Positions 1,486 to 25,396 of a stretch of DNA of 32,000 bases are shown piece after piece. The first letter of the stretch is position 1. Every line of letters starts with the position of its first letter. This stretch comes from Candidatus Electronema halotolerans (GTDB lineage: Bacteria; Desulfobacterota; Desulfobulbia; Desulfobulbales; Desulfobulbaceae). The position numbers and the translations under genes are program-made. The notes beneath the pieces were generated by a model. It searched no databases. It saw only the letters and a program-made list of their open reading frames with translations, and was not told the origin of the DNA. The DNA lies in NCBI GenBank assembly GCA_942493095.1, contig OW818675.1:120001-152000 (forward strand). Reading direction: 5' to 3'.

Positions 1486-4400
1486 TCATTCCCTGCCGCT
1501 GTACGGCGCAAAGGCCCGCTCCGCCTTGGCGCGGTATGCAATAGCCCGGCTGCTGTCGCCCTGCTGGTCGGCGATGCGGGCAAGAGTATTGTAGGTCTTC
1601 CATATCTCCGCTGCTGCCGGGTCAAGGGCTTCGCTGATGGCCAAGCCTTCCTCAGCCAGGCTGCGGGCCTCGTCCAGGCGGGCCGGGTCATCTTTCAGCA
1701 GGTTGGCAAGGTTGTTGAGGGTGCGGGCTATACCGGGCCGGTCGTCCGCTGCTCGGCAGACTGTCAATGCCTTGTCATACCACTGCTCCGCCTCTGCCTT
1801 GCGACCTGTGAACATGCAGACTTGGGCGAGCTGATCCCAGCTATTGCCAGCACTCACGCTGCCTCCCAGCATTCCCTGCTCCTCCTTGAGACGGGCGGCC
1901 TGCCGATATGCCTGCTCCGCTGCCTCCCACTGCTCTGCGTCCTGATAGACTATGCCTAACTGGTGCCAGAACACAGCCTCGCTTGCAGGCTCATTGATGC
2001 GCTGAAACAGCGACAGGGCTTCCTTGAACCGCTCTGCCGCCTCAGCCAGCTCGTCCTGCATATAGGCCAGGGTGCCGAGCTGTCCCTTACTTACCGCAAC
2101 GGCCCGCGTGTCTCCCAGCTCCTCAGCAATCTCTAAGCCTGCCTGATAGGCTTCCTTGGCCTGGTCATACTGTCTCTGGTCACAGAGCACATCAGCCAGG
2201 TCGGTCCAGGCAAAGCCGGTCAGCCGCCGCACTCCGTCGCTCTGCTCCAACTGGGCCAGTTCCTCCAGCTCCTGCCGGTAGAGCTGCTCCGCCTGCGCAG
2301 GCTGGCCTTGTGCTCTATAGCAGCGGCCCAGCCTGTGTAAGGTGATGCAGCGTTCATAACTGGGAGTCTCCCCCAGTCCCTTGAGGATGTCAGCAAAGAC
2401 TGCCTCAGCCTGCTTGGGCTGGCCGCTGTTCAAAAGCTGCTCGCCGAGGTTGCTGCGGGAGAGATACCACGCCTTTGAGCCGACCACGCCGCCTGCCTTG
2501 CCTGCCGCCTCAGTCAATTCCTCAGCGTCCCGCCGTAGCCCGAAGTATCGGAGAAAGAGATTGACGTTATTAGCAAAGTCCACGCCCTCCTCGCTTCTGC
2601 CTGACTGCAAGGCGGCATGGACAGCCCGGAGCATATTCGGCAGCTCGTGCCGGGCAACAGCGCGGGCTGCATGGGGATTTGTTCTATCCAACCTGTACAG
2701 CTCATTGGAAAGCTGGTAGTACGCCTGCCAATAGCCTTCCAGTAGCTCGTCCTGCTCCTCCTTGCCCAGCTTCTGCCACAAGGCCAGGGCCAAGGTCGGG
2801 TGGAAGCGCAGGAAGGTCTTGTCAGCCACCGGCACCCGCTCCGCCTGCATCAGTCCAGCCCGGAGCAGATGGCTGCGCAGCTCGTGCCAGTCTGCCTCCT
2901 CAAAGCCTGTCACCATGCAGACCATCTCCTCCAAACATCCCCCGGCGAAGACTCCCAGCCTTGGCAGCCACTTCCTGCACTGCTCCGGCAGCCGCTCAAT
3001 GGACAGCTCCAGCGAGGCAAGCAGGCTGCGGTCTTCCCGGTTCAGCGGCTGCTCCTCCAGCAAGGCCTCCAGCCGCCCGCTCACGTCCGCCGGGCCGCGC
3101 ACCTTGAGCTGCTGGGCCAGCAGGCTGATGGACAGCGGATGAAAGCCGACCTTGTCGAACAGCCTGATCAGGACATCGCGCCGGGGCCGTTCCCGTTCAG
3201 CCTTGGGCGGCAGACGGCGCAGCTCGTCAAACCAGTCCACGGCATCGCCGGGTTGCAGGCCCTGCAAGGCAAGGGCTTGATGCGCATAGCTGCCTGCCAG
3301 CGGATAGCTCGGATGGCGGAAGTCCGGCTGGCGCGAGGTGAGGAGGACGCGGCAGCCCTCAGCCGCTGACCATTGGGCTGCGGCATCCAGCAGCTCATGC
3401 AGCCCGCGCCCCTCAGCCAGGCTCTCCAAGTTGTCGAGAATCAGCAGGGTCGGCGTGCTGTCCAGCGATGCCTTGACCGCCGCCTCATCCGGCAGATTCT
3501 CGGCAAAGACCGCCTGCATCGTCGCCACCGCCATGCTTGCCGGGTCGCTGCCCTGATAGGCGGCATAGCTGATAAAGCAGACCCGCTGAAAGAGCTTGGT
3601 GCGCAGGAACCAGCGGCCTGCTTCCACGGCCAGCGCGGTCTTGCCTTGGCCGCCAAAGCCGGTGATGCTGAAACGGCGGCAGCCCTCCACGGCAAAGGCA
3701 CGCTCGATCCGCCACAGCTCCCTGCTCCGGCCAAAGAAACCGGACTCCTGCGGCTTAGGCAGATTGGCGGGCGGCTCGGCTTTGGCCGCCAGACTGTCCG
3801 CGCCCTCGGCACTGAGCAGCGGCTGATCTGTCCCGCTCTGATACAGGGTCGGCAAGAACCAGTCGTGCAGGTCCAGCTTGAACTCCTCGGCCAGCCCTGC
3901 GCCGCGCAGCCGGATGCCGCGCTCCGGGTTGAAGCAGAGACGGTGCCGGGCCTCGTCCAAGGAACTTGCCGGGCTGCGTCCCTTGAACAGGCTGCGGTAG
4001 AACTCGGCAAAGAGCTGCTCCGCCGTGCTGACCAAGACGCTGTGGCTCATGGCGATGACCGCAGGAATGCCCGCATGAACCAGCCGGGCCGCTGCGCTGC
4101 TCATCGGGTCTTCGCTGTTCATCATCGCCGATTGGCAGGCCGACAGCACGACCAAGCCCGCATGGTTGCGGAAGAGCAGCTCGCCGAACTCCTGCGCGGA
4201 AACCAAGTCCTTGCCGCCGTCCTTGTCCTCAAACAGGAGCCAGCCCTGCTTCTTGTCCGCCGCCGCGCCGCCTTCCTTGCTGTACTCGCCCTTCCCGGCT
4301 CTGTCCAAGCTGCTCTCGCTGGCAAAGCTGCCGTGGCCGTCAAAGTGGATAATATCGACCTTGGGCAGGCGGGTGTCCCGCAGCCGCTGCCTGAGCCGCT

Positions 4401-5025
4401 CCAGCGTGGCAGGCCGGAGGAACTCCACCTCCACCCGCACCTGCTTCTGTTCCCCCAAGGCATTCAGCACCGCCTGAGCATCGCTGCGCGGATTGATGAA
4501 CCCGGCTCCCTCTGGCCTGCTGATGAGAAAGAGGAGATGCAGGGCAGGCTTGGGCGCACGCTCATGCGGACTGCGGCCCTGTCCCGCGCTCGGCAGGCCC
4601 CGACGGATGGAGATAGACGGGTTCTCGTTGAAGAGATAGGAGCCGCCCGGCGTGGCCAGCAGCTCCCACGGCAGGGAAAGCACCGCCGGGTGGTCGGCAG
4701 CAATACTGAGTACCCGGCCTTCCTCCTCCGCCTCCAAGAAGCGGTCAAAGAGCTTGGCCGCCTTGCGGTCGCTGTCAAAGACGGCGGAGAACAGGGCTGC
4801 TCCCCAGACCGGCAGCCGCGCCTTGACTGCGGCAGCCCGCGCATCGTCCGGCTCGGCAGCATACTGAGTACCGTAGTCCTCCACGTACCAGCGCAGTTCC
4901 TTGAGGTCGTCCTCTGTCAGCGGACTGGTGAACTCGGCTGGCTGGCTGAAGTCGGGCGCATTGCCCAGCAGGGCAACGCTGACATGGGCGGGGTCGGGGA
5001 AGGTGAGACGCAGTTCTGTGGGCAT
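1486..5025 (-). CDS. CHAT (caspase-like) protease - NB-ARC/STAND P-loop NTPase - TPR repeat protein, 1179 aa
   Basis: I set the start at ATG 5025-5023 (MPTELRL..), which is preceded by AAGGAGG 7 nt upstream. The longer track ORF (to 5343) would run into the tRNA terminator. CHAT dyad candidates are ..VDIIHFDGHG.. (His ~231) and ..LVVLSACQSA.. (Cys ~297). The P-loop is ITGFGGQGKTALA (~aa 455-467) and Walker B-like is TLLILDNLE. The C-terminal ~400 aa consist of repeated A/L/Y/G-rich 40-aa TPR-like units (..LGTLAYMQDELAEAAERFKEAL..). Confidence 0.85.
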   Translation of the reverse strand: MPTELRLTFPDPAHVSVALLGNAPDFSQPAEFTSPLTEDDLKELRWYVEDYGTQYAAEPDDARAAAVKARLPVWGAALFSAVFDSDRKAAKLFDRFLEAEEEGRVLSIAADHPAVLSLPWELLATPGGSYLFNENPSISIRRGLPSAGQGRSPHERAPKPALHLLFLISRPEGAGFINPRSDAQAVLNALGEQKQVRVEVEFLRPATLERLRQRLRDTRLPKVDIIHFDGHGSFASESSLDRAGKGEYSKEGGAAADKKQGWLLFEDKDGGKDLVSAQEFGELLFRNHAGLVVLSACQSAMMNSEDPMSSAAARLVHAGIPAVIAMSHSVLVSTAEQLFAEFYRSLFKGRSPASSLDEARHRLCFNPERGIRLRGAGLAEEFKLDLHDWFLPTLYQSGTDQPLLSAEGADSLAAKAEPPANLPKPQESGFFGRSRELWRIERAFAVEGCRRFSITGFGGQGKTALAVEAGRWFLRTKLFQRVCFISYAAYQGSDPASMAVATMQAVFAENLPDEAAVKASLDSTPTLLILDNLESLAEGRGLHELLDAAAQWSAAEGCRVLLTSRQPDFRHPSYPLAGSYAHQALALQGLQPGDAVDWFDELRRLPPKAERERPRRDVLIRLFDKVGFHPLSISLLAQQLKVRGPADVSGRLEALLEEQPLNREDRSLLASLELSIERLPEQCRKWLPRLGVFAGGCLEEMVCMVTGFEEADWHELRSHLLRAGLMQAERVPVADKTFLRFHPTLALALWQKLGKEEQDELLEGYWQAYYQLSNELYRLDRTNPHAARAVARHELPNMLRAVHAALQSGRSEEGVDFANNVNLFLRYFGLRRDAEELTEAAGKAGGVVGSKAWYLSRSNLGEQLLNSGQPKQAEAVFADILKGLGETPSYERCITLHRLGRCYRAQGQPAQAEQLYRQELEELAQLEQSDGVRRLTGFAWTDLADVLCDQRQYDQAKEAYQAGLEIAEELGDTRAVAVSKGQLGTLAYMQDELAEAAERFKEALSLFQRINEPASEAVFWHQLGIVYQDAEQWEAAEQAYRQAARLKEEQGMLGGSVSAGNSWDQLAQVCMFTGRKAEAEQWYDKALTVCRAADDRPGIARTLNNLANLLKDDPARLDEARSLAEEGLAISEALDPAAAEIWKTYNTLARIADQQGDSSRAIAYRAKAERAFAPYSGRE

Positions 5026-5158
5026 TGGGGAACCTCCTTGGGCATTGAGATGGCTGCGAAGAACGGAAAATATACCCTGCCCGCAGCGCAGAGGCAAGCA
5101 GCCTTGCGCAGTACCCGGCGCAGAGGCGTATATTTCCTTCATGTACACACCAACAAGC

Positions 5159-5201
5159 ACTTGGTGTCTCCACCAAGTTTCGGTTGGTGGAGACACCAAG
5201 T
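5159..5201. repeat. 18-bp perfect inverted repeat with a 7-nt spacer (ACTTGGTGTCTCCACCAA gtttcgg TTGGTGGAGACACCAAGT) upstream of the CHAT gene
   Basis: Read directly. It lies 134-176 nt upstream of the proposed CHAT-STAND start and downstream of the tRNA terminator. Its function (operator, RNA structure or REP) is unknown. Confidence 0.8.
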
Positions 5202-5310
5202 CTGCGCCGAAGCACTTGAGCACTGACTCGTTGCTCAGGTCGCCCCACTTCTGCCACTGGGTGTGCGGATGCTTTCTGCTGCATGCTGCCGGGAAGGAAC
5301 GGACTGGGGA

Positions 5311-5349
5311 ATAAAAAAAGGACTTAACGCTGTGCAGCGTCAAGTCCTT
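5311..5349 (-). terminator. Rho-independent terminator of the tRNA-Val/tRNA-Asp transcription unit
   Basis: On the minus strand, AAGGACTTgACGCTG-cac-CAGCGTtAAGTCCTT is followed by TTTTTTTAT. It starts ~9 nt after the tRNA-Asp 3' end. Confidence 0.65.
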
Positions 5350-5357: not shown

Positions 5358-5434
5358 TGGCGGGGCCGACCGGGCTCGAACCGGCGACCTCCGGCGTGAC
5401 AGGCCGGCATTCTAACCAGCTGAACTACGACCCC
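5358..5434 (-). tRNA. tRNA-Asp (anticodon GTC)
   Basis: The reverse complement GGGGTCGTAGTTCAGCTGGTTAGAATGCCGGCCTGTCACGCCGGAGGTCGCCGGTTCGAGCCCGGTCGGCCCCGCCA folds by hand into a cloverleaf. The anticodon loop is CTGTCAC, the T-loop is GTTCGAGC, and CCA is encoded. Confidence 0.92.
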
Positions 5435-5440
5435 GGAATT

Positions 5441-5516
5441 TGGTGGGCGAAACAGGGTTCGAACCTGTGACCCTCGGCTTGTAAGGCCGATGCTCTCCCA
5501 ACTGAGCTATTCGCCC
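5441..5516 (-). tRNA. tRNA-Val (anticodon TAC)
   Basis: The reverse complement GGGCGAATAGCTCAGTTGGGAGAGCATCGGCCTTACAAGCCGAGGGTCACAGGTTCGAACCCTGTTTCGCCCACCA folds into a cloverleaf. The anticodon loop is CTTACAA, and CCA is encoded. Confidence 0.92.
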
Positions 5517-5593: not shown

Positions 5594-8011
5594 TCAATGA
5601 CCGAGCTGCCGGGCCGGGCTGTTGTGGGCCGAGATGCTGACATCATGATAAATTGCCTCCAAGGTGATCTCCCGGAACAACTCCTCGCCGTCCCGGAGAA
5701 GCAGGGCGCGGCTGAGAACTTCATCCACATGCTCAACCAGAATGATCTCCAAGCTGCCGCGCACATGTTCCGGCACATCGGTCAAATCGCGCTCGTTCTC
5801 CTTGGGCAGGATCACCCGGATGATGCCGCCCCGGCGGGCTGCGAGCAGCTTTTCAGTCAGGCCGCCAATCGGCAGCACCCGGCCCCGGAGGGTGATCTCG
5901 CCGGTCATGGCCAGCTGGCGGTCCACCTGCACCTTGAGCAGGGCCGAGACGATGGAGGTGGCAATGGTGATGCCCGCAGACGGCCCGTCCTTGGGAATCG
6001 CCCCCTCCGGCACATGGACGTGAATATCCACTTTCTGGTAAAAACCGGCATCCAGCCCCAGGCGCATGGAGCGGGAGCGGACATAGGCCAGCGCAGCCTG
6101 AGCTGACTCCTGCATGACCTCGCCCAGCTTGCCAGTCACCGTCATCTTGCCAGTGCCGGGCATCAGGGCGGTTTCAATCTGGAGCAGCTCGCCGCCGACT
6201 TCAGTCCACGCCAGCCCGGTCACCAAGCCGATCTCGTCCCGCTTCTCAGCCAGCCCGTAGCGGTGCTTGGGCACGCCAAGATATTTGGCCACAGACTCGT
6301 CCGCGAGCTGGTATTTCTTCTCCGGCTCCTTGTTTTGCAGCCGCTCGCGGGCCACTTTGCGGCAGATTGAAGCAAGGGTGCGCTCCAAGTCGCGGACTCC
6401 GGCCTCGCGGGTGTAGCAGCGGACAATCTCCAAGACAGCCTCTTCAGAGAAGACAATGTCGTCTTCGGCAAAGCCGTTGCGCTCCAACTGCTTGGGGGCA
6501 AGATGATCTTGAGCGATGCGCAGCTTTTCCTCCTCAGTGTAGCCGCTCAGGCGAATGATCTCCATCCGGTCTTGCAGGGGCAGGGGAATGCCGTGCAAGT
6601 TGTTGGCCGTGGCAATAAAAAAGACCTCGGACAGATCATAGTCCAGATCAAGATAATGGTCGTTGAAGGCGTTGTTCTGCTCCGGGTCCAGCACCTCCAA
6701 CAGGGCTGAGGAGGGATCGCCCCGGAAATCAACGCTCATCTTGTCAACCTCATCCAAGCAGAAAACCGGGTTGATCACCTCGGCCTTTTGCATGGAGTGC
6801 ATGATCTTGCCGGGCAGAGCACCGATATAGGTGCGGCGGTGGCCACGAATTTCCGCCTCGTCCCGCACCCCGCCCAGCGAGAGGCGGGCAAACTTGCGGT
6901 TCATAGCTCTGGCAATCGACTTGCAGACCGAGGTTTTGCCCACGCCGGGCGGCCCGACCAGACAGATGATCGGCCCTCTGATTTTCTCCACCTGCGCCTG
7001 CACGGCCAAATACTCCAGGATGCGCTCCTTGGCCTTTTTCAAACCGTAATGATCCTGATCAAGGATGCGCTCCGCCTCCTCAATGTCAATCTTGGCCTCG
7101 CTCTTCTCAGTCCACGGCAGACTGATGATGGTGTCGAGATAGTTGCGCACTACTGTGCTTTCCGCCGACATGGGCGGCATGGCCCGGAGCTTGCTCATCT
7201 CCCGCTCCGCCTTTTCCCGCACTGCCTGTGGCAGCTCCTTCTTGTCCAAGGCTTCTTGCAGCTCGCTGTAGTCGTCCGCGCCCTGGCCCATCTCCTGCTG
7301 GATTTCCTTGACCTTTTCGCCAAGATAATAGTTGCGCTGGTTGTCAGCCATCCGTTTTTTAACTTTGACCTCAATGGACTTTTCCAGCTCGTCGATCTCA
7401 AGCTCACGGAAGAGCAGCTCCACAGTCCGGCGCAGGCGCTCTGGCAGCGAAACGGTTTCCAGCAGCTCCTGCTTCTCCTCAGTGCGCAGCTGGATATGGG
7501 CGGCAATCAGATCGGCAAGGCGAGCCGGATGCTCCATCACCGCCGCAGCCTTGACTATTTCCGCAGGAATCTTTTTCCGACTGATCTTTGCGTATGCTTC
7601 AAAGGCATGGCGCAGCTCGCGGATATAGGCAGGCAGCTCCGGGCTGTCCTCGTCTGTGTCGGCCAGCTCCCGCAAATCCGCCCGCAGTATCCAATCGCTG
7701 AACTCCAGATAGGCGGAAACCTCGGCCCGCCGCTTGCCTTCAACCAAGGCTTTGAGACTGCCGTCCGGCAGGCGCAGGAGCTGGATGACTGAAGCCAGCA
7801 CTCCGCAACGGTGCAGGTCGCCGGACTGTGGGTCATCAATGCCCGCCTCCTTCTGCGCCACCAGAAAGATCAGGGAACGCTTCTCCATCGCATATTCCAA
7901 GGCGCGGGCCGAGTTTTTCCGGCCCACAACCAAGGGGGCGATCATGCCGGGGAAAAGGACGATATCCCGCAGCGGCATGACCGGATAGCGGATCAGATTG
8001 AATTCAGACAT
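5594..8011 (-). CDS. lon: ATP-dependent Lon protease (LonA), 805 aa
   Basis: It has the LonA N-terminal domain ([20 protein letters not shown]), Walker [10 protein letters not shown], and the proteolytic Ser motif [14 protein letters not shown]. Full-length colinearity with LonA is evident. Confidence 0.97.
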
Positions 8012-8243: not shown

Positions 8244-9941
8244 CTATTCCTGCTCCTTCATCTGGCGCAGTTGCTCAAGGCAATGCTGCTCGCGCAGGGG
8301 CATGGAAAGCTGGCGGTACATATCCGCCGCCTTTTGCCAGCATTCTTCCGCCTGCGGAAACTGCTGTTGCGCCTGATGCAGCTTGGCGATACTTTCCAAG
8401 CAATCGGCCACGCATTCCGGGTTATGGGTGCGTTCATTTAGAGCCAAGAGCTGATCATAATAATGCTTGGCGGCAATGAATTCGCCGATCTTTACGGACA
8501 AGTCTCCGAAGGCTTGCAGGCAACCGGCTTCGCCGACACCTGCTCCAGCTTCTCGATACAGATGCAGGGCTTTTTTGTAACACCGCCGCGCTTTCTGAAA
8601 TTCAGAAGAATGGAAATAGACTTGGCCAAGATTAAAAAAGCAGGAAGCCACACCCATCCGCACACCTGTTTTTCGACATAATTGCAGTGCTTCTATTGCG
8701 CAACGCCGTGCTTCGTCGAATTCAGAAAGATCAAGATGCACATAAGTAAGGTTTTGCAGACAGGCGGCTTCGTCTATCAGACTACCTGTCTCCCGACTTA
8801 ACCGCAGGGCTTTTTTGTAGAAGAAATGCGCTTTCTGAAATTCAGAAAGACGTTGATGCACAGAACCAATGGCCTGTAATGCAACAATCTCACCTGATTT
8901 ATCGCCTGTTTCTTGGCATAACTGCAATAATTCCTCGTAACACAGCAGTGTTTCTTGATATTCCAAATGACTATAATGCACCTGGCCAAGCAGCAAGAGG
9001 CAGTTTGCTTTACTCTCCTGATCGCCTGTTTCCAGAGATAGCTGCAAGACCTCTTTAACATACTGCTTGGCCTCCAAGAAATTGGAGAGCCAACAATGCG
9101 CGATGCCAATCTGAAATAAGCTTCGGATTTCTTGTTTCTTATTGCCCGCTTTTCGGCTTACCTGCAAGGCTTGTTCATAGCACCGTTGGCCTTCTTGGTA
9201 TTCGCAAAGAGCTACATGCACGCGGCCAAGCTGTAAAAAATAGCTGATGATTAACTGATCATCGCAATTAGTTACATCTGCGAGGTCGATTTTTTGCAAA
9301 GTCTGCTTGGCATCATGGAAACTTCCCGATGGAAAGACCTTCATTTTGGCTTGATTGAGCCAAAAATAGTATATCGCTTTTTTAGGCAAGCGGTTCAGTC
9401 GCACATGTTCCTGCACGGCTCGCAGCAAACTTTCCACTTTATCAAAAGGAAAATTGGAAGGTTTGAACCATTCAGTACATGTATCATGGAAGGCCCTCGC
9501 TCCATCATCGGGATATGCTATCAACTGATGATATACTGTTTCAATCCGCCACGTTATGTCATTCTGATCTTGCTTTTTGCAATACACAAAAGCACGGCAG
9601 GAGATTTCCCGGTACAACGCCTCATCTTCCTGCCAGAGCTTTTCTTGTAGCAGCTTGCGGCTGCGCTCATGGACATTGAACCGCCCTTCGCCGGGATACG
9701 GCTCAATGTACGACAGACCGGTGAGTTCGGCAAACTGTGCCTCATCCAAGGGCTGGTCCAGCAGGACGTTGAGAAAGGCGCGGTCAAAGAAACGCGGCAC
9801 AACGGCTGCCTGCACAGCGGCCCGCAGCGGCTCCGGCAGCCGCTCCAGCGTGAAGTGCATCAGCAACCGCTCGCGCTCGTCCTGATTTCCGCAGGCTTGC
9901 AGCTGCTCCAGCAGGACTTGATGAGCAGAAAATTCAGTCAT
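8244..9941 (-). CDS. TPR-repeat protein with a helical, winged-helix-like N-terminal region; proposed sensor half of a split STAND NTPase, 565 aa
   Basis: The ATG lies 6 nt after the stop of the upstream NTPase gene. The N-terminal ~230 aa are helical (..RFFDRAFLNVLLDQPLDEAQFAELTGLSYIEPYPGEGRFNVHERSRKLL.., a pattern seen after the NTPase domain of STAND proteins). About 8 consecutive 40-aa TPR-like units follow (e.g. LSEFQKAHFFYKKALRLSRETG, SSEFQKARRCYKKALHLYREAG). Confidence 0.8.
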   Translation of the reverse strand: MTEFSAHQVLLEQLQACGNQDERERLLMHFTLERLPEPLRAAVQAAVVPRFFDRAFLNVLLDQPLDEAQFAELTGLSYIEPYPGEGRFNVHERSRKLLQEKLWQEDEALYREISCRAFVYCKKQDQNDITWRIETVYHQLIAYPDDGARAFHDTCTEWFKPSNFPFDKVESLLRAVQEHVRLNRLPKKAIYYFWLNQAKMKVFPSGSFHDAKQTLQKIDLADVTNCDDQLIISYFLQLGRVHVALCEYQEGQRCYEQALQVSRKAGNKKQEIRSLFQIGIAHCWLSNFLEAKQYVKEVLQLSLETGDQESKANCLLLLGQVHYSHLEYQETLLCYEELLQLCQETGDKSGEIVALQAIGSVHQRLSEFQKAHFFYKKALRLSRETGSLIDEAACLQNLTYVHLDLSEFDEARRCAIEALQLCRKTGVRMGVASCFFNLGQVYFHSSEFQKARRCYKKALHLYREAGAGVGEAGCLQAFGDLSVKIGEFIAAKHYYDQLLALNERTHNPECVADCLESIAKLHQAQQQFPQAEECWQKAADMYRQLSMPLREQHCLEQLRQMKEQE

Positions 9942-9947
9942 AGGGAT

Positions 9948-10709
9948 TCAGCAGAGTCGGGGAAAAGTTTCGATGAAGGTGCTGATCTGGCCGGGCGAGC
10001 CTTTAGTGAAATCGCAGAGGCAGGCCAGATAATCCAGCGGATGTTCTGAAGGCACTCGGAAGCCGCGCTCCTTAATCACTGGGAGCCAGTCTTCAGGTGT
10101 CGGCACACCTTTCAATTCATACTTGCAGCAGAAGTCAACCCATTCATCGCCGGTGTCGGTGTCTGGCACCTCCTGTCCGGCGATGACGATGCGCAGCAGC
10201 TTGCAGGCGCGGGGCAGACGGACAATGACGCTTTCCAGCCAGCTTTGCAGATCAGCTCCGGCCTTTTCGTAGGTGTCCACAACCAAGAGCAGGGGCCGGT
10301 CAAACTGGCTGAGATCGCGCAGCCACGCATCAGTCAGCCAGACTAACCGCTCTTTGCGCTCCTGCTCGCTGCCGCTGCCGAGCACCACGCTGATCTGGTT
10401 GCCGCTGCCCTCAATTTGATTGCCGCTGATCTCCACGTTGTGCTGGCGGAGACATTGACTGAAGGCGGGCAGCCTGCCGGAGCGGAGACAATCGGCGGTG
10501 CGGCTGAAGACTTCGGCGGGATTGATGCCGTCCCGCTTGCAGTCCACAAAAATTTGCTGCGCATCATCCAGCGCGGTCTTGCGGCAGATTCGCAGTAAAC
10601 TGGTCTTGCCGCAGCCCGACTGGCCGACAAGGAGTAGAATAGGCACTTGGCAGAGCGGCTCCCGCAGACGGGCGAAAGCGGTTCGCTCATTTTTGTAGTT
10701 TGCCAGCAT
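9948..10709 (-). CDS. P-loop NTPase (stand-alone nucleotide-binding module, STAND/AAA_16-like), 253 aa
   Basis: Walker A is LLLVGQSGCGKTSLL and Walker B-like is RPLLLVVDTYEKA. Between them is an unusual insert, VEISGNQIEGSGNQISVVLGSGS. The start lies 9 nt after the stop of the small upstream ORF. Confidence 0.75.
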   Translation of the reverse strand: MLANYKNERTAFARLREPLCQVPILLLVGQSGCGKTSLLRICRKTALDDAQQIFVDCKRDGINPAEVFSRTADCLRSGRLPAFSQCLRQHNVEISGNQIEGSGNQISVVLGSGSEQERKERLVWLTDAWLRDLSQFDRPLLLVVDTYEKAGADLQSWLESVIVRLPRACKLLRIVIAGQEVPDTDTGDEWVDFCCKYELKGVPTPEDWLPVIKERGFRVPSEHPLDYLACLCDFTKGSPGQISTFIETFPRLC

Positions 10710-10718
10710 GGCGGCGCG

Positions 10719-10979
10719 TCAACTCATAAGCTGGTTCTTACTTCCCTCAATTTCAGCCGTATCAATCTGACCGCCGTTCGTGGCCTTGAGACTGTTCTCA
10801 TCGCCTTTGATTTTCACGCCGCTGATGCGGGTGACAGACGGCTCCTGCGTGTCCATGGCTACAGTGACACCCTCTTTGCTGACATTCACCTTTGTGCCCT
10901 TCAGCCTGTCTCGCAGAATCCAGATCACGGCTGCCGCGCCAGCGGCGATGATCAGGGCAATCAGCACGTTGTCGCTCAT
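10719..10979 (-). CDS. Small membrane-anchored protein, 86 aa (one N-terminal TM helix plus a hydrophilic tail)
   Basis: I set the start at ATG 10979-10977, preceded by AGGAGG. The longer track ORF (to 11111) would overlap the clpX 3' end. The N-terminus NVLIALIIAAGAAAVIWIL is hydrophobic. The tail is charged with I-x-G-x-x-N repeats. I recognise no family. Confidence 0.55.
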   Translation of the reverse strand: MSDNVLIALIIAAGAAAVIWILRDRLKGTKVNVSKEGVTVAMDTQEPSVTRISGVKIKGDENSLKATNGGQIDTAEIEGSKNQLMS

Positions 10980-11029: not shown

Positions 11030-12298
11030 TTAAACCGCCTTTTTGTTTTCGTCGCTGCGGATGACCTCTGGGTATTTGCCTTCGCTGATGACCTCCTCGC
11101 TGATCACGCATTCCGCCGCATGTTCATCCGAAGGCAGCTCATACATCACCTCCAGCATCGCGTTTTCCATGACCGAACGCAGACCTCTGGCCCCGGACTT
11201 GCGCTGCATGGCCTTCTTCGCGGCAGCCAGCAGGGCCTCGTCAGTGAAACGGAGGCTGATGCCTTCCAGCTCGAACAGCTTCATGTACTGTTTGGTCAGG
11301 GCGTTTTTCGGCTCCTTGAGAATGCGGATCAGGTCTTCCTCAGCCAAATCCCGCATGGGCGCAATCACTGGCAGACGGCCCACCAGCTCCGGGATCAGGC
11401 CGAACTTGAGCAGGTCTTCCGGCTGGACATCAGTCAGCAACTCGCTGTCTTCCTTGACCTTGTCCAAGGAAATTTTGGCCCCGAAGCCTATGGATTTGGT
11501 ACCAGCCCGGCGTTTGATCACCTTGTCCAAACCGACAAAGGCTCCGCCGACAATGAAGAGAATATCGCTGGTGTCAAGCCTGATCAGGTCCTGCTGCGGA
11601 TGCTTGCGCCCGCCTTTGGGCGGCACTGAAGCCACAGTGCCCTCGATCATCTTGAGCAAAGCCTGCTGCACACCCTCGCCAGACACGTCGCGGGTCAGGG
11701 ATGCGGAATCTGACTTGCGGGCGATCTTGTCGATTTCATCAATATAGATGATGCCGCGCTGGGCACGGTTGACATCATAATCCGCCGCTTGGAGCAGGCC
11801 GACCAAGATGGTCTCCACATCATCGCCGACATAACCGGCCTCGGTCAGGGTGGTGGCATCGGCAATGCTGAACGGCACATTGAGAATGCGGGCCAAGGTT
11901 TGGGCCAGCAGGGTCTTGCCGCTGCCGGTCGGGCCGATGAGGATGATGTTTGATTTCTGGATTTCGACATCATTGGCCTTGCCGCTGCGCGAGCTGATCC
12001 GCTTGTAGTGATTATGCACGGCCACGGCCAGCACCCGCTTGGCCAAATCCTGGCCAATCACATAGTCATCTAAATGAGCATGAATCTCTTTGGGCTTGAG
12101 CAGGCGGGGCGGGGCGGCAACCTCGTCTGTTTTTCCCTCCTCCACAGGCTCTTTGATCATGCCGCTGCAAATTTCCACGCAGTCATCGCAGATATAGACA
12201 TCAGGCCCTGCGATCAGCCGGGCCACCTCCGCCTCCTCCCTGCCGCAGAACGAGCAGGCGCGGGTGCCTGAGGAGCTGCCGGTCGCGTCGCCGCTCAT
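11030..12298 (-). CDS. clpX: ATP-dependent Clp protease ATP-binding subunit ClpX, 422 aa
   Basis: It has the N-terminal zinc-binding module (CSFCGR..YICDDCV), Walker [22 protein letters not shown], and the pore loop GYVG. The start overlaps the clpP stop (ATGC..TGA region 12295-12298). Confidence 0.97.
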
Positions 12299-12891
12299 GC
12301 TTTGGCCTCCTCCCTGCGCTCCAGCACCTTGTCGATCAGGCCGTATTCCTGGGCTTCCGCCGCTGTTTTGAAGTTGTCACGGTCAGTGTCCAGCTCAATC
12401 TGCTTGATCGGCTTGCCAGTGTGCTTGGCCAAAATTTGATTCAAATCCGCCCGCATCCGCAGAATTTCCTTGGCATGAATTTCAATGTCCGTGGCCTGGC
12501 CTTGGAAACCGCCGAGCGGCTGATGAATCATGATCCGGGAATTGGGCAGGGCGTACCGTTTGTCTGCCGCGCCAGCAGCCAAGAGCAGCGCGCCCATTGA
12601 GGCGGCCTGACCCATGCAGAGCGTGGCCACGTCGCAGCGTATGTACTGCATGGTATCGTAAATGGCCATGCCAGCAGTCACTGAGCCGCCGGGCGAGTTG
12701 ATGTAAAAGGTGATGTCCTTGTCCGGGTCGTCCGCCTCAAGAAAGAGCATCTGGGCGACAATCAGGCTGGCCACGTCATCTGTGACCGGCGTGCCGAGAA
12801 AAACAATGCGCTCCCGGAGCAGACGGGAATAAATATCAAAAGCCCGCTCGCCGCGCGGACTTTGCTCCACCACCATAGGCACAAGATTCAT
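12295..12891 (-). CDS. clpP: ATP-dependent Clp protease proteolytic subunit ClpP, 198 aa
   Basis: Conserved ClpP sequence with the catalytic Ser context GQAASMGA, the His context IMIHQP, and [11 protein letters not shown]. Confidence 0.97.
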
Positions 12892-12969: not shown

Positions 12970-14298
12970 CTAAGCCGACTGCTCTTCCGCTGTCGGTTCC
13001 TCCGCTGTTGCCGCCGCCTCGGTGATTGTGGCCGCATCGAGCAGGAAACGGAGAATTTTCTCGTTCAGCAGCTCGGCGACAAAGGGCAGTATCTCCTCCC
13101 GTCGCTGAAAATACTGCTTCACTTCCGGCACGCTCATGCGGTACTGGCTGGCAATTCGCTCATAGCCGCGTTCAAGGTCCTCATCCACCAGCTTGATCTC
13201 CTCCAATTCAGCAATCTTTTTGAGGAGAAAATCACCCCGGACCCGCTTTTCCGCCAGTTCCCGGTTCTGTTCGGCCAGCTCCTCCACCTTGATGCCAGCA
13301 GTCTCCAAGCTCAGACCGTTGCGCTTGAGCCGCTCCTCAGTCTGATTGATCATCTCCTGCACCTCGTAGGCCACGGCCCGTTCCGGCACTGGGAAGGGAT
13401 TCAGCTCAATCAGCTTCTGCATCAGGCGGTCGGTCAGGGTGCCTTCAAAAGCCTCCTGCTGCTGCTGGCGCAGCTCCTCGGCAATGCCTGCCCGCAGGTC
13501 CTCCAAGGTATTGTACTTTTCATCCACGTCCTTGGCAAATTCATCATCCAAAGCAGGCTTGACCCGCTCCTTGATTTCTTTGACATCAACCTTGAATTCA
13601 ATGGTCTTGCCCGCCATGACCGGATTCGCATAGTCGCCCGGAAAAGTGGTCTCGTAAAGGGCAGACTCGCCTTTTTTCAGGCTCAAGAGCTGCTCCTCAA
13701 ACTCCGCGCCCAGCCGCTTGGCTCCGACATCAATCGAGTAATTCTCGTTATGAACCTGCTTCATCGGCTTTTCATTGTGAAAGCCCTGAAAATCAACCGT
13801 GACAATGTCGTCCTCAGCCACGACATGATCTTCCGGCGCAGTCCTGAGCACAGCGTGCTTGCGGCGCAGCTCCTCAATTCTCCGGTCAATGTCGGCATCT
13901 GTCACTTTGACGGCAGGCTTTTCAATCTCCAAGCCTTTGTATTCACTGATCTCAAAGACCGGCTTGATATCAACCAAGGCCGCATAGACAAAGGCACCGT
14001 CGTCAGCAAAAGTGGTTTCCGATATTTCAGGATGAACCACCACCTCCAGCTCCTTTTTCTCGACCGCGTCAAAATAGGTCTCCTGCACTAATTTTTCCGC
14101 CACCTCAGCCCGCACTCTGTCGCCGTAGTTCTTCTCCAAGATGGACATTGGGGCCTTGCCCTTGCGGAATCCTTTGAGATGAACATCCTTTTTCAGCTTG
14201 CTGTAGGCTTTGTCCAGCTCCTTGCGCACAGTCTCAGCAGGCACGCTGACAGTCACTTTCCGGGTCAGCTCGCTGAGTTCTTCGACTGCTATTTCCAT
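12970..14298 (-). CDS. tig: Trigger factor, 442 aa
   Basis: It has the N-terminal ribosome-binding motif (..GFRKGKAP..), a central FKBP-like PPIase region, and sits in the canonical position upstream of clpP-clpX. Confidence 0.95.
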   Translation of the reverse strand: MEIAVEELSELTRKVTVSVPAETVRKELDKAYSKLKKDVHLKGFRKGKAPMSILEKNYGDRVRAEVAEKLVQETYFDAVEKKELEVVVHPEISETTFADDGAFVYAALVDIKPVFEISEYKGLEIEKPAVKVTDADIDRRIEELRRKHAVLRTAPEDHVVAEDDIVTVDFQGFHNEKPMKQVHNENYSIDVGAKRLGAEFEEQLLSLKKGESALYETTFPGDYANPVMAGKTIEFKVDVKEIKERVKPALDDEFAKDVDEKYNTLEDLRAGIAEELRQQQQEAFEGTLTDRLMQKLIELNPFPVPERAVAYEVQEMINQTEERLKRNGLSLETAGIKVEELAEQNRELAEKRVRGDFLLKKIAELEEIKLVDEDLERGYERIASQYRMSVPEVKQYFQRREEILPFVAELLNEKILRFLLDAATITEAAATAEEPTAEEQSA

Positions 14299-14427: not shown

Positions 14428-14511
14428 TGGTGCGAGAGGGGGGAGTTGAACCCCCACGCGCAAGGCGCTGGATCCTAAGTCCAGTGCGTCTGCCAGTTCC
14501 GCCACTCTCGC
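14428..14511 (-). tRNA. tRNA-Leu (anticodon TAG), long variable arm
   Basis: The reverse complement is GCGAGAGTGGCGGAACTGGCAGACGCACTGGACTTAGGATCCAGCGCCTTGCGCGTGGGGGTTCAACTCCCCCCTCTCGCACCA. The anticodon arm is CTGGA-CTTAGGA-TCCAG, and CCA is encoded. Confidence 0.9.
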
Positions 14512-14709: not shown

Positions 14710-15219
14710 ATGGACAGGGACGGACAGCAACAAGTGGCTGAAGCCCGGCTGCGGCTGACAGAGACTGGAGCGCGAATATCGCAGGAGCTGGGCGGCGGTC
14801 GGATTGTCGGGCAGGTGCTGGTTCATCTCTATCTGCAACCGGAGGCGCAATCTTTAGACAGCATTGGCGAGGCCCTGGCCTTGAGCAAAGCCTCTATCAG
14901 CATTGCGGTCCGCCAGCTAGAGCGGCTTGGTTTTGTCCGCCAAGTCTGGATCACCGGCGACCGAAAAAAATATTATCGCAGCGCGGACAATATCGGCAGC
15001 AGCATCCAGCAGGGCCTGCTCTCCCTTCTGCGCCAGAAAATTGATCTTTTTGGAGCAGAGTTAGACAGCGCGCTCTGTCTGCTGGATAATGAGCAGACAG
15101 GCAGGGCGGATATGAATTTTCTCCGGCAGCGTATAGGCAGAGCAAAAAAACTGCAAAGCATTGTGCATAAACTGCTCGGCAGTCCTTTGGTCAGTTTTTT
15201 GGCGAAAAATATCAAATAA
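14710..15219 (+). CDS. Winged-helix transcriptional regulator (GbsR/MarR-like), 169 aa
   Basis: ..GRIVGQVLVHLYLQPEAQSLDSIGEALALSKASISIAVRQLERLGFVRQV.. is a typical HTH plus wing pattern of the GbsR/MarR group. It is the first plus-strand gene ahead of wzm. Confidence 0.6.
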   Translation: MDRDGQQQVAEARLRLTETGARISQELGGGRIVGQVLVHLYLQPEAQSLDSIGEALALSKASISIAVRQLERLGFVRQVWITGDRKKYYRSADNIGSSIQQGLLSLLRQKIDLFGAELDSALCLLDNEQTGRADMNFLRQRIGRAKKLQSIVHKLLGSPLVSFLAKNIK

Positions 15220-15224: not shown

Positions 15225-16091
15225 ATGATGCAACAGGCGGCAGGAACGGACACAGCACAATGGGACTTTATTATCAAGCCGAAAACCGGCTGGTTTGATA
15301 TTGACTTGAAGGAGCTGTGGCGTTATCGTGATTTGATCACCATGTTTGTCATGCGTGACTTCGTCACTGTCTATAAACAGACGATTTTAGGGCCGCTGTG
15401 GTATATCATTCAGCCGCTGTTCACTACAGTTGTTTTCACCATTATTTTTGGCAAGGTGGCCAAAATTTCCACAGACTCGCTGCCGCCTTTCCTCTTTTAT
15501 CTGTCAGGCAATGTGATCTGGGGCTATTTCGCCTCCACCCTGAGCTCGACTTCCAACACCTTCAACAACAACGCGTATATATTTGGCAAAGTTTATTTTC
15601 CACGCCTGACTGTGCCTCTGGCGACCGTGCTTGTCAATTTTTTGCAATTTTTTATCCAGCTATTCCTGTTTCTTGGTTTTTACCTGTATTTTCACCTGCA
15701 CGGTGCGCCAGTGCAGCCGACTCGCTGGCTGTTGCTTCTGCCCCTGCTGATGGTGCAGATGGCCTTGCTCAGTCTGGGACTTGGCGTTCTCTTTTCATCC
15801 ATGACCACCAAGTATAAAGACCTTCGTTTTGCCATGAGTTTTTTGGTGCAGCTCTGGATGTATGCAACCCCAGTGGTTTATCCCCTCAGTCAGATACCGG
15901 ATTGGCTGCTGCCTTGGTATGCGCTGAATCCAATGGCTGCAATCGTTGAAAGTTTCCGTTTCATGTTTTTTGGAGTCAGCTCAGTGCAATGGAGTCAAAT
16001 CGGCATAAGTTGGCTGGTCACTGTGTTGCTCTTGTTTGCAGGCGTGATGCTGTTCAGCAGGATTGAAAAAACATTCATGGACACAGTCTAA
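15225..16091 (+). CDS. wzm: ABC-2 type polysaccharide export permease (Wzm-like), 288 aa
   Basis: The N-terminal motif is LWRYRDLITMFVMRDFVTVYKQTILGPLWYIIQPL, and about 6 hydrophobic segments follow. It is directly followed by the cognate ATPase. Confidence 0.85.
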   Translation: MMQQAAGTDTAQWDFIIKPKTGWFDIDLKELWRYRDLITMFVMRDFVTVYKQTILGPLWYIIQPLFTTVVFTIIFGKVAKISTDSLPPFLFYLSGNVIWGYFASTLSSTSNTFNNNAYIFGKVYFPRLTVPLATVLVNFLQFFIQLFLFLGFYLYFHLHGAPVQPTRWLLLLPLLMVQMALLSLGLGVLFSSMTTKYKDLRFAMSFLVQLWMYATPVVYPLSQIPDWLLPWYALNPMAAIVESFRFMFFGVSSVQWSQIGISWLVTVLLLFAGVMLFSRIEKTFMDTV

Positions 16092-16106
16092 AACAATGCA
16101 ATTGTC

Positions 16107-17408
16107 ATGAATGTTATTCAGATAGAAAACCTCTGGAAGGAATATCGGCTTGGTGTTATAAGTCATGGCACCTTGAGTCGTGACTTGCAGTCTTGGTGGG
16201 CAAGGCTGCGGGGCAAAGAAGATCCGAACAGCAAGCTCCAGCCTATGCTGGCCGGGCAGGAAAAACAGATTGAAGGAGATCACTTCTGGGCTTTGCGGGA
16301 CATCAACTTGGAAGTGAAAGAGGGTGAGATGCTCGGCATCATCGGCAGGAATGGAGCAGGCAAGTCAACATTGCTGAAGCTGCTTTCCCGCATCACTGCG
16401 CCGACAAAAGGGCAGATCAAGGTCAAGGGCCGAATTGCCAGCTTGCTGGAAGTAGGCACAGGGTTTCATCCTGAGCTTACTGGCCGGGAAAATATTTTCA
16501 TGAATGGTGCCATTCTCGGCATGTCCAAAAAGGAGATCAAAAGCAAGCTGGATGAGATTGTCGATTTTTCTGGAATTGAGCAGTTCATTGACACTCCAGT
16601 CAAAAGGTATTCATCCGGCATGTATGTCAGGTTGGCCTTTGCTGTGGCTGCGCATCTTGAGCCGGAAATTCTTGTAATAGATGAAGTGCTGGCCGTTGGT
16701 GATGCGGATTTTCAAAAGAAGTGTATCGGGAAAATGGGAGAAGTCACCCAAGAAGGACGGACTGTGCTTTTTGTGAGTCATAGTATGTCAATGATCAGCA
16801 CGTTATGTGAAAAAGGCGTTCTATTGATCGATGGAAAAGTTGCCAAATATGGTCAAATATCGGATGTTGTCTTGGCTTATTATGAAAGTATTTCTGATAC
16901 GAAACGCACTTCAGTTCAAGCTGAATTTTTTAGTGATGGAAGCTGTCGTTTTGTGTCAGCTGCAATTGCCAGCAAAAATAAGATAGACACGAGAGAAGTC
17001 GATCTCGGCAGTGAAATCAAAATAATAATGATTTATGATCTGCTGAAGGAGACGGAAAACTTATATATTCCTAATTATCATATATTTACTGCTGAAGGTC
17101 AATATGTTTGCTGTGTAAATAGCCCCAGGGTGAAACCTATGAAATTAGGTCGTTATCGTGCGCAATGTGTCATTCCTCCTTTTCTTTTGAACGAGGGGGC
17201 ATATACAGTTGGAGTTGCTGTAACTTCTTTGGATTTATATTGCAGTGATTTAAGAGGGCAACAAACGGTTCACTTTTATGAAAAGGATATATTGTCGTTC
17301 AACGTGGTGGACAGTAAAATTCCAGATGACTGGAATTATGGCGTTATAATGACAGTGCCAGGTGTTGTCCGACCCCGGCTTTCTTGGACAATAGAAAAAA
17401 CAGCTTGA
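16107..17408 (+). CDS. wzt: Polysaccharide ABC transporter ATP-binding protein (Wzt-like) with a ~180-aa C-terminal extension, 433 aa
   Basis: Walker A is GRNGAGKST, the signature is YSSGM, and Walker B is ILVIDEVL. The NBD ends near aa ~250. The remainder (16857-17405) is an extra domain. Confidence 0.9.
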   Translation: MNVIQIENLWKEYRLGVISHGTLSRDLQSWWARLRGKEDPNSKLQPMLAGQEKQIEGDHFWALRDINLEVKEGEMLGIIGRNGAGKSTLLKLLSRITAPTKGQIKVKGRIASLLEVGTGFHPELTGRENIFMNGAILGMSKKEIKSKLDEIVDFSGIEQFIDTPVKRYSSGMYVRLAFAVAAHLEPEILVIDEVLAVGDADFQKKCIGKMGEVTQEGRTVLFVSHSMSMISTLCEKGVLLIDGKVAKYGQISDVVLAYYESISDTKRTSVQAEFFSDGSCRFVSAAIASKNKIDTREVDLGSEIKIIMIYDLLKETENLYIPNYHIFTAEGQYVCCVNSPRVKPMKLGRYRAQCVIPPFLLNEGAYTVGVAVTSLDLYCSDLRGQQTVHFYEKDILSFNVVDSKIPDDWNYGVIMTVPGVVRPRLSWTIEKTA

Positions 17409-17414
17409 AGAAAA

Positions 17415-18188
17415 ATGAAAGCTGTCATCTTGGCCGGAGGTCTTGGCACCCGCATTGCCGAAGAGACTCATCTGAAGCCCAAGCCGATGATTGAGATAGG
17501 TGGCAAGCCGATTCTTTGGCATATCATGAAAATTTATTCTTCCTACGGCATTAATGACTTTATTATCTGTCTCGGCTATAAAGGGTATATTGTTAAAGAG
17601 TACTTCGCCCACTATTTTCTGCACATGTCTGATGTCACCTTTGATCTGAAAAAAAACGAGATGCAGGTGCATCGGCAGCATGGGGAGCCGTGGCATGTGA
17701 CACTTGTCGATACCGGAGAGTTGACCATGACCGGAGGCAGGTTGAAGCGGATCAGACCGTATTTGATGACTGAAGAACCTTTCTGCTTTACTTACGGTGA
17801 TGGTCTCGCAAATGTCAACATCTCAGAATTGACAGCTTTTCATAAAAAGAAAAATACGCTTGCCACAATGACAGCCGTGCAACCGCCTGGACGTTTTGGC
17901 TCTCTTGACATGCAGCAGGACAAAGTTATCCGTTTTGAAGAAAAGCCGGATGGTGATGGCGTATGGATTAACGGCGGATATTTTGTCCTGTCTCCAAACG
18001 TGTTCGATTATATTGAGGGAGATCATATCTGCTGGGAAAAGGAACCACTGGAGCGGTTGGCAAGAGAAGGGCAGCTTTCCGCCTACAGACATCGGGGCTT
18101 CTGGCAGCCAATGGACACGCTGCGGGACAAGAATTTACTCGAAGAACTGTGGAATAGCTGCACTGCACCGTGGAAAACTTGGGAATGA
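17415..18188 (+). CDS. rfbF: Glucose-1-phosphate cytidylyltransferase, 257 aa
   Basis: [58 protein letters not shown].. is highly characteristic of RfbF/DdhA. Confidence 0.9.
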
Positions 18189-19937: not shown

Positions 19938-19944
19938 GGTGACT

Positions 19945-21296: not shown

Positions 21297-21330
21297 TTAC
21301 TATGAATATTCTTCATAAGAGATTTCAAAA

Positions 21331-23276: not shown

Positions 23277-23322
23277 ATATGCCAGATCAAAGTTTCACAA
23301 TAAAATTCACAGATACTTAGTA

Positions 23323-24397: not shown

Positions 24398-24398
24398 G

Positions 24399-24584: not shown

Positions 24585-24615
24585 ACCGTAACCGCTATAA
24601 AAGGGAGATTGTTTC

Positions 24616-25365: not shown

Positions 25366-25396
25366 TCAGTTATAGCTCGATATCCTTATATTAAGA

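Follow-up and report, generated by a model that had tools for sequence, protein, structure and literature searches.

What are three additional genes doing between clpX and lon in a cable bacterium? The stretch considered here, 32,000 nucleotides of Candidatus Electronema halotolerans (contig OW818675.1, positions 120,001 to 152,000; this whole stretch is referred to as the window), carries on its minus strand a cassette of three closely packed genes in that interval, encoding a small membrane protein, a P-loop NTPase and a protein with an array of tetratricopeptide repeats (TPRs). An earlier reading of the bare DNA, hereafter the original prediction, had taken the cassette for a STAND NTPase split into two genes with a separately encoded membrane protein in the place of the effector, or alternatively for a sensor or adaptor feeding ClpXP/Lon proteolysis. 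On balance, we consider it fairly probable, although well short of certain, that the three genes together form an NLR-like (STAND) conflict module from a sizeable, unnamed family, whose output is coupled through a short motif shared by the small protein and the NTPase and which acts in the manner of abortive infection. Both the defence role and the membrane damage that it implies are predicted functions. The three genes, with the partner of the NTPase listed last, are as follows.

10719-10979, minus strand: small membrane protein gene, 86 aa, putative effector; ATG start with AGGAGG 7 nt upstream, homologues found 5' of the NTPase gene in 13 loci.
9948-10709, minus strand: NTPase gene, 253 aa, read as STAND-type, nucleotide-binding domain (NBD) plus first helical domain (HD1); Pfam AAA_16, AlphaFold2 (AF2) predicted local distance difference test (pLDDT) 80-95.
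8244-9941, minus strand: partner gene, 565 aa, read as winged-helix domain (WHD), helical arm and TPR sensor; open reading frame (ORF), Pfam, AF2 model and PDB fold matches.

Within the NTPase and its partner, five features bear on whether the two proteins together make up a STAND receptor.

10599..10625, minus strand: Walker A, GQSGCGKTS (NTPase aa 29-37; G29, G32, G34 and K35 invariant).
10266..10292, minus strand: Walker B, LLLVVDTYE (NTPase aa 140-148; D145, T146 and Y147 invariant).
9993..10001, minus strand: GxP-like motif G237-S-P239 near the C-terminus of the NTPase (G237 and P239 invariant).
9666..9833, minus strand: winged-helix core of the partner, aa 37-92 (AF2 pLDDT 93; helices 37-46, 54-61 and 67-74, strands 79-82 and 87-90).
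8247..9254, minus strand: TPR array of the partner, aa ~230-565, about 8-9 units (Pfam TPR_12, TPR_10 and TPR_MalT; AF2 helix pairs; G+C content at third codon positions (GC3) 0.495).

The NTPase contains the P-loop that defines the STAND superfamily, with both Walker A and Walker B, and is recognized by Pfam as AAA_16 (38.8 bits, cut-off 32.6); nSTAND6, nSTAND1 and NACHT all score below threshold. Its G237-S-P239 may represent the STAND GxP motif that closes HD1. The C-terminal repeat sensor typical of the superfamily is provided by the TPR array of the partner (TPR_12 at 6.8e-40, TPR_10, and TPR_MalT at 51.9 bits with a cut-off of 45), as is a WHD with a conserved histidine: the triplet V90-H91-E92 (nt 9666-9674) closes the winged-helix core, V90 and H91 being invariant and E92 being replaced by D in one locus (L005). 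The MHD-type sensor histidine of NB-ARC proteins sits directly after the wing, and H91 of the partner may be its equivalent. The superfamily is further characterized by the presence of all modules on one polypeptide, whereas in the window and across the family they are divided between two genes.

An AF2 model of the partner N-domain (aa 1-235, 235 aa), built with 24 homologues, reached a pLDDT of 93.3 and a predicted TM-score (pTM) of 0.88, and consists of two helices, a winged helix with a hairpin at 79-90, and a helical arm. When this model was compared with the PDB by Foldseek, the top six matches were all STAND proteins, including MalT (8bob), the Pyrococcus STAND-TPR protein PH0952 (6mfv) and Avs5, with MalT as the best match (E 0.011, probability 1.0, query TM-score (TMq) 0.47). 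At the level of sequence, a Pfam scan of the N-domain alignment found no family, and a profile search of PDB sequences returned only P-loop-level matches for the NTPase and none for the partner. Using hhalign against one 891-aa cyanobacterial STAND-TPR protein, the NTPase profile was aligned with aa 200-270 and the partner N-domain with aa 341-488 (E 1.1e-5). We also joined the three window proteins into one artificial fusion chain, with X in place of the stop codons, and modelled it from a block alignment in which MAFFT partly misaligned the partner fragments, resulting in low pLDDT of the WHD; the model as a whole had a pLDDT of 77 and its best structural match was 6mfv, over 725 aligned columns. 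Cumulatively, the sequence comparisons and models support the NTPase and its partner as one STAND protein cut between HD1 and the WHD. This junction is the hinge at which STAND proteins such as Apaf-1, NLRC4 and MalT open on activation. The split STAND of the original prediction is therefore upheld by the AAA_16 assignment, the winged-helix model, the MalT, 6mfv and Avs5 folds and the colinear alignment to a single-chain STAND, and the N-terminal third of the 565-aa protein, which had been described as winged-helix-like, is indeed modelled as helices plus a winged helix (pLDDT 93). Among the Pfam families that it had proposed to look for, AAA_16, TPR_10 and TPR_12 were found and NACHT stayed below threshold.

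To place the NTPase in a family, an exhaustive profile hidden Markov model (HMM) search of 1.84 billion representative proteins was performed, which yielded 1,491 matches at E<=1e-3, 586 at E<=1e-10 and 163 at E<=1e-30. It was used instead of word-indexed protein searches, which recovered just 25, 6 and 19 relatives; profile scans of contigs and metagenomes were swamped by the Walker A pattern, and a C-terminal sub-alignment (A2) was of use in their place. A census of domains covered 133 full-length sequences from the top 150 matches plus the window NTPase. The great majority (108 of 133) are standalone NTPases of ~250-270 aa with the same end point as the window protein, and no TPR region follows in any of these. 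Judged by this census, the split STAND is the norm for the NTPase family and not a peculiarity of the window. Fusions do occur, either at the N-terminus with TIR (P0077, P0166), a trypsin-like peptidase (P0096), a caspase (P0115) or Trans_reg_C (P0054), or at the C-terminus with PNP_UDP_1 (P0093) or the effector-associated domain (EAD) EAD7 (11 scanned members). TIR, trypsin-like, caspase, PNP and EAD7 domains are known as effectors or adaptors of NTP-dependent conflict systems in multicellular prokaryotes (PMC7159879, PMC8195603).

If the receptor has been divided in this way, by what means could it act on the small protein encoded upstream? The answer appears to lie in a motif that the two proteins have in common and that is found at three places in the cassette.

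10380..10436, minus strand: slot motif R0, NTPase aa 92-110, VEISGNQIEGSGNQISVVL, in the loop between Walker A and Walker B (score 42.7 with a position-specific scoring matrix (PSSM) of the slot; G101, N104 and L110 invariant).
10776..10832, minus strand: tail repeat R1, small protein aa 50-68, TRISGVKIKGDENSLKATN (PSSM 10.6).
10722..10772, minus strand: tail repeat R2, small protein aa 70-86, GQIDTAEIEGSKNQLMS (best Smith-Waterman alignment, small protein aa 71-84 with NTPase aa 93-106).

The motif is ~19-20 aa long, rich in G and N (V-x-I-x-x-N-x-L-x-G-x-x-N-x-I-x-V-x-L), and present once in the NTPase, where the loop lies at the surface, and twice in the effector tail, in tandem. Hydrophobic residues alternate along it and are interrupted by G/N turns, the spacing from R1 to R2 is 20-21 aa, and the logo of the slot in 75 standalone members reads V-[NE]-[IV]-[SD]-[GD]-N-x-[LQ]-h-G-x-[NG]-N-x-I-x-V-x-L. 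With a slot PSSM derived from the 74 other family members only and applied to the 19,684 positions of all six-frame window ORFs of 80 aa or more, a score of 8 or more was obtained at R0 and R1 alone, the 99.99th percentile being 3.4. Across effectors, the top match of the same matrix is R1 or R2 in 13 of 14. Smith-Waterman alignment of the small protein with the whole NTPase places the tail on the slot in 8 of 10 loci, and in 6 of 7 lineages the tail scores higher against its cognate slot than 1,000 composition-preserving shuffles (p<=0.003). In locus L029, where whole-protein Smith-Waterman gave a spurious match between the P-loop and a hydrolase, the tail repeats were located by the PSSM scan. 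Moreover, tails tend to fit their own slots, as the cognate tail-slot sum over seven lineages is 243 against 185 +/- 18.5 after permutation (a value reached by 0.2% of permutations), and over nine lineages 300 against 234 +/- 19 (p = 7e-4). This co-variation is real but moderate.

The distribution of the motif within the family is in keeping with a function in effector coupling. The strict slot motif occurs in 61 of the 108 standalone members (56%) and a looser pattern in 81 (75%), whereas the strict form is present in none of the 25 members with fused domains or an insertion at the slot. It is absent from all 15 members with C-terminal EAD7 or PNP and from all eight with N-terminal extensions, five of which were domain-scanned and carry TIR, a trypsin-like peptidase, a caspase or Trans_reg_C. 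In two members a whole domain is inserted exactly at the slot, and in one of them, P0081, this domain is EAD7 (aa 110-171, 1.4e-14). Because the motif is missing where TIR, caspase, trypsin, PNP or EAD7 is fused, we regard it as a replacement for effector coupling by fusion and not as a means of localisation; it appears to behave like an EAD, that is, as a homotypic tag linking interchangeable effectors to the NTPase. A locus in Anaerolineales (L023:3242-7259) encodes an NTPase of 338 aa with a C-terminal helical extension, of the length seen in EAD7-bearing members, and has neither the loop motif nor an upstream small gene; its partner, of 998 aa, has another P-loop (GAPGSGKT) beyond the WHD/TPR region.

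The small protein itself consists of a single transmembrane (TM) helix followed by the tail, with no globular domain, and no helical bundle was seen.

10914..10967, minus strand: TM helix of the small protein, aa 5-22 (from sequence; AF2 helix aa 2-25).

The helix is preceded by an acidic N-terminus (MSD) and followed by a basic flank (RDRLKGTK), from which an N-out/C-in orientation, with the tail in the cytosol, is predicted by the positive-inside rule. Most aligned loci share the same plan, comprising M-[ST]-[DE]-N-V, a hydrophobic helix, a basic patch, a K-x-G segment, a Pro-containing linker and two ~20-aa repeats; L012 and L013, from distant lineages, deviate from the M-[ST]-[DE]-N-V N-terminus. 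In L029, the gene in front of the NTPase gene encodes, in place of the small TM protein, a 330-aa α/β-hydrolase (L029:2971-3963; Abhydrolase_6, CHSMGG elbow), whose C-terminal tail has a Pro-rich linker and then two copies of the motif (PSSM 11.8 and 6.5). The suggestion in the original prediction that a small membrane protein occupies the effector slot gains weight from the motif common to its tail and the NTPase loop, and from this hydrolase carrying the same tail motif. In a Ca. Electrothrix MAG (metagenome-assembled genome; GM3_4, L011:4730-5086) the small effector gene is frameshifted, either by an assembly error or as a pseudogene.

Considering these features together, a course of events can be proposed for the cassette as a conflict module. 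The TPR sensor would bind a ligand derived from an invader or from stress, upon which the two STAND halves would assemble, pass into the ATP state and oligomerise. The R0 loops, clustered in this way, would capture or template the R1/R2 tails, and the TM helices of the effector, being concentrated, would damage the membrane, so that the affected cell of the filament would die or arrest, as in abortive infection. The coupling may be amyloid-like or may be plain strand pairing. The former version, which is possible but in our view rather doubtful, holds that the 20-aa unit is a rung of β-solenoid or amyloid type and that oligomerised R0 loops would serve as a template on which the two-rung tail (R1-R2) of the effector, either a minimal single-TM executioner or a hydrolase, becomes stacked in order. 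The alternating hydrophobic and polar pattern, the G/N turns and the period of ~20 aa are compatible with such a rung, and the arrangement that marks amyloid pairs, a short motif on the effector C-terminus and on the receptor side encoded by adjacent collinear genes, is present with a gap of 9 nt.

Several results weigh against a motif-coupled conflict module. The fold matches of the WHD are marginal (E 0.011 to 0.3), the slot motif falls short of 100% among standalone members, and in the tail-slot comparison the cognate slot is rarely top-ranked, with L013 and L029 individually non-significant. In the AF2 model of the fusion no confident contact between tail and slot was found, the tail being disordered (pLDDT <40) and the small protein having no alignment depth, and the slot is predicted as a coil plus a short helix, not as β-structure. 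These two AF2 results, together with the internal position of the receptor-side motif, also speak against a strict amyloid version. Further, P0054 with its DNA-binding Trans_reg_C indicates that family members need not all be death modules; searches of plasmids, phages and IMG/VR found no homologue; and PADLOC-DB v2 gave no system-specific match, the best matches being mad8 (2.2e-4, across the P-loop) and generic TPR models.

Some of the same observations would fit a different role for the small protein, namely that of a membrane anchor or co-sensor, the motif being a 1:1 β-strand interface that tethers the NTPase, with the output arising otherwise, for example by NTP depletion or through an unlinked effector. 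We consider this unlikely, though deserving of some weight. It would account for a protein made of nothing but a TM helix and a tail, it agrees with the lack of a β-solenoid in AF2, and there is a precedent in the EACC1-type single-TM "constant components" that were proposed as membrane sensors (PMC7159879). An anchor is, however, hard to reconcile with L029, in which an effector-like enzyme, the α/β-hydrolase with its GxSxG-type elbow, stands at the same position with the same tail motif, or with the loss of the motif exactly in those members to which TIR, caspase, trypsin, PNP or EAD7 is fused.

The sensor half of the cassette may have a history of its own, which bears on whether the module is immune in nature at all. 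The GC3 of the TPR part of the partner is 0.495, compared with 0.60 in its WHD part and 0.69-0.76 in the neighbouring genes. Compared with the partner of L018, from a related MAG (window 8244-9413, minus strand, against L018:8481-9587), the WHD is 78% identical, and beyond about aa 176 the L018 protein continues with unrelated 28-aa units. Across loci, partner length ranges from about 310 to 1,000 aa. Since the composition is foreign, the L018 repeats are unrelated and the lengths vary, the TPR sensor may have been swapped by recombination, as would be the case for an immune receptor. This argues against a further explanation, in which the cassette is a non-immune signalling STAND of MalT/AfsR type whose TPR protein senses a metabolite or stress and governs some physiological response of cable bacteria, perhaps at their membrane. 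MalT is the closest fold match of the WHD, TPR_MalT and AfsR-type TPR matches were obtained, and P0054 bears an OmpR/SARP-type Trans_reg_C. The cassette, however, encodes no DNA-binding domain, its relatives bear domains characteristic of conflict systems (TIR, caspase, trypsin, PNP, EAD7), and its genomic positions are variable, with toxin-antitoxin (TA) genes, an integrase and a replication protein among the neighbours. We therefore consider signalling of this kind improbable.

These positions were examined further, as the location next to clpX raises the question of a link to proteolysis. The order effector-NTPase-WH-TPR is found at 15 distinct loci, the genes being closely spaced or overlapping by 4 nt and the NTPase ranging from 247 to 269 aa in the small-NTPase-TPR order. 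The named loci, the taxon names of which rest on nine genome matches, are from filamentous taxa, namely cable bacteria, Thiotrichaceae and Anaerolineales. In L003/L018 (Desulfobulbaceae / Ca. Electronema MAG) the cassette again lies between clpX and lon. In another Electronema (L009) it is located between murJ and fusA (EF-G), in the complete genome of Ca. Electrothrix YB6 (L019) beside lysS, in L005/L006 between HAD and PfkB genes, in L007 and L020 near HicB, HEPN or HigA-type (TA) genes, and in L028 beside a replication-protein gene (RPA/HTH flanks); L022 is from a Thiotrichaceae genome, and further copies were recovered on several short contigs. Linkage to clp or lon is confined to the window and L003/L018, with at least 9 other contexts lacking both. 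On this evidence the module is conserved and mobile, and it is not a Clp/Lon accessory. Two observations belong beside this survey. In L003:10374-11856 (= L018:10104-11586) PIN, UPF0175 and DUF3368 TA-like genes lie between the cassette and lon, with an integrase gene after lon; the region between clpX and lon has the appearance of a hot spot for integration. In L007:3085-4701 (Electrothrix) the next gene after the cassette encodes a 538-aa AAA_35/ATPase_2 protein that may be an additional conflict component.

The idea that the three proteins are an accessory of the Clp/Lon operon, acting as a substrate adaptor or as a regulator co-transcribed with clpX, consequently has very little left in its favour. 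The cassette does begin 50 nt past clpX with no terminator-like hairpin between them, and it keeps this position in the related MAG. Against this, at least 9 other loci have no clp or lon neighbour; in L018, there are terminator-like hairpins after clpX, and the cassette is parted from lon by TA genes; and between the window and L018 the NTPase is 69% identical compared with 83-84% for ClpX and Lon. The adaptor feeding ClpXP/Lon that the original prediction had kept as its alternative is thus not supported. The remaining objections that it raised to itself are not borne out either, since no housekeeping family was assigned, the clpX-lon position is not universal, the three genes occur together in other loci, and a STAND-like fold is predicted.

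The flanking genes in the window are arranged as follows.

12970-14298, minus strand: tig (window ORF).
12295-12891, minus strand: clpP (window ORF).
11030-12298, minus strand: clpX, upstream flank, outside the module.
5594-8011, minus strand: lon, downstream flank, outside the module.

The gaps between genes are 50 nt from clpX to the small gene, 9 nt from the small gene to the NTPase gene, 6 nt from there to the partner gene and 232 nt from the partner gene to lon, and the cassette is identical on two independent Logan assemblies. A scan of the 50-nt gap found neither a terminator-like nor a promoter-like site, in agreement with the original prediction, which had seen no convincing terminator there. 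Its description of the cassette is confirmed throughout, from the three ORFs on the minus strand and the spacing between them to the Walker motifs, the TM helix and the TPR array. Within the cassette, only the small gene is preceded by a Shine-Dalgarno sequence (AGGAGG), as would be expected if the NTPase and partner genes were translationally coupled. All three ORFs lie in one frame, separated by a single TGA plus 3 and 2 sense codons, and this layout is shared by L003 and absent from more distant loci, which have ATGA overlaps or a change of frame; because the layout is not conserved, we take the common frame to be a coincidence and not a sign of read-through. That one STAND gene was broken by two nonsense mutations, or that TGA is read through or recoded to give a single 900-aa protein, is suggested by nothing other than this frame, with its TGA and 2-3 codons between the ORFs here and in L003, and is scarcely credible given the 4-nt overlaps or other frames in L005, L007, L012, L013, L022 and L029, the stop at the same point (about 255 aa) in 108 of the 133 full-length family members, and the role of TGA as a normal stop codon in the window, where it terminates the cassette genes, for instance.

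Beyond lon, the window contains tRNA-Val and tRNA-Asp (5358-5516, minus strand) and then a single-chain NLR-like gene (1486-5343, minus strand) with a CHAT protease domain, a NACHT-like P-loop and TPRs, the ORF being up to 1,285 aa with the true start probably later. A paralogous relationship between the cassette and this CHAT-NACHT-TPR gene was considered and rejected, as the alignment is confined to the TPR repeats. On the other side, tRNA-Leu(TAG) (14428-14511, minus strand) lies just upstream of tig, and a divergent ORF of 169 aa with no Pfam match (14710-15219, plus strand) precedes a cluster for Wzm/Wzt polysaccharide export (ABC-2 permease and ABC ATPase with Wzt_C) and for sugar-nucleotide and glycosyltransferase functions (15225-31470, plus strand). 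The GC content is 0.33-0.39 at about 19-29 kb, in the polysaccharide cluster, and about 0.58 in the protease operon; owing to this drop, the cluster region was probably acquired horizontally.

STAND and NLR receptors are seen as switches made of one chain, in which activation is a rotation at the HD1-WHD hinge. If our interpretation is right, nature provides a large family that is cut at this very hinge, and the switch would become testable in trans, as regards both the cohesion of the halves and the changes brought about by ATP. A slot that holds either a 19-aa motif or EAD7 would be a modular adaptor site inside the ATPase domain. The effector, with one TM helix and two repeats, would be near the minimal size for a regulated death effector and would be easy to synthesise and mutate. 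Should the amyloid version hold, prion-like signalling would be launched from inside the nucleotide-binding domain, and the protein would be the smallest known amyloid-controlled death effector, in multicellular cable bacteria. The cassette as a whole may link a sensor to a cell-killing effector in a novel manner, and would strengthen the case that bacteria with a filamentous, multicellular habit (cable bacteria, Thiotrichaceae, Anaerolineales) invest in suicide systems of NLR-like type.

As to novelty, the original prediction did not recognise the architecture as a named defence system, and the databases concur: PADLOC yields none, the small protein has no match in PADLOC-DB v2, and no model in NCBIfam or Pfam names the system. 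In the literature consulted we found no description of a STAND split at the HD1-WHD hinge with an adaptor motif inside the NBD, and papers on split STAND systems and on the defence systems of cable bacteria did not contain the cassette architecture. The "Npun2340/2341 family" (Leipe 2004, cited in PMC8195603) might denote a two-gene STAND. Published screens for amyloid motifs covered only the N-termini of NB-ARC/NACHT proteins beside Bell-domain genes, and would therefore miss an internal slot.

It remains to set the module beside the systems that it most resembles. The order NBD, HD, WHD, (arm) and TPR of single-chain STAND-TPR proteins (MalT 8bob, PH0952 6mfv, Avs5 9nc9) is retained in colinear form over two proteins; it differs from them in comprising two polypeptides, in having no fused effector or DNA-binding domain, and in that its sequence match to PDB chains is confined to the P-loop. 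The EACC1 system (PMC7159879, section 33) likewise has a small single-TM protein encoded by the 5' gene, followed by the gene of the core conflict component, but the small protein of the cassette has no Pfam EACC1 match, its partner is a split STAND and not a caspase, and the coupling would run via the tail motif. In the amyloid signalling pairs, namely fungal NWD2/HET-S, bacterial Bell-BASS/NLR and E. coli Bab/Agp (bioRxiv 10.1101/2020.01.06.895854, 10.1101/2024.11.07.622273), the effector gene is also immediately upstream, collinear and within 10 nt; a ~20-aa G/N-rich motif is carried by the effector C-terminus and by the receptor-side protein, often with two repeats on the former and one on the latter; the effector is small (Bab has only 109 aa) and begins with a hydrophobic helix with an acidic residue at position 2-3 (position 3 in the cassette); and the systems are enriched in filamentous or multicellular prokaryotes. 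Unlike in those pairs, the receptor motif of the cassette is internal (aa 92-110, between Walker A and B) and not at the NLR N-terminus, two proteins make up the receptor, the effector is a TM helix plus tail with no Bell/HeLo-like helical bundle seen, and AF2 predicts no β-structure for the motif, amyloid formation being hypothesised only.

Similarly, in the EAD-coupled STAND conflict systems of multicellular prokaryotes (Kaur, Burroughs, Iyer, Aravind 2020/2021; PMC7159879, PMC8195603), a repeat-sensor STAND recruits separately encoded effectors via a homotypic adaptor on both proteins, and adjacent adaptor copies are more alike than non-adjacent ones; relatives of the cassette NTPase bear EAD7, TIR, caspase, trypsin or PNP. 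In the cassette, by contrast, the adaptor is a ~19-aa linear motif inside the NTPase domain and not a helical EAD, the STAND is split, and no EAD domain of Pfam was found in the three window proteins. Although the module misses the features that define these systems (an EAD domain, an N-terminal motif, a Bell domain, a single chain), it would work like the EAD- and amyloid-coupled NLR systems.

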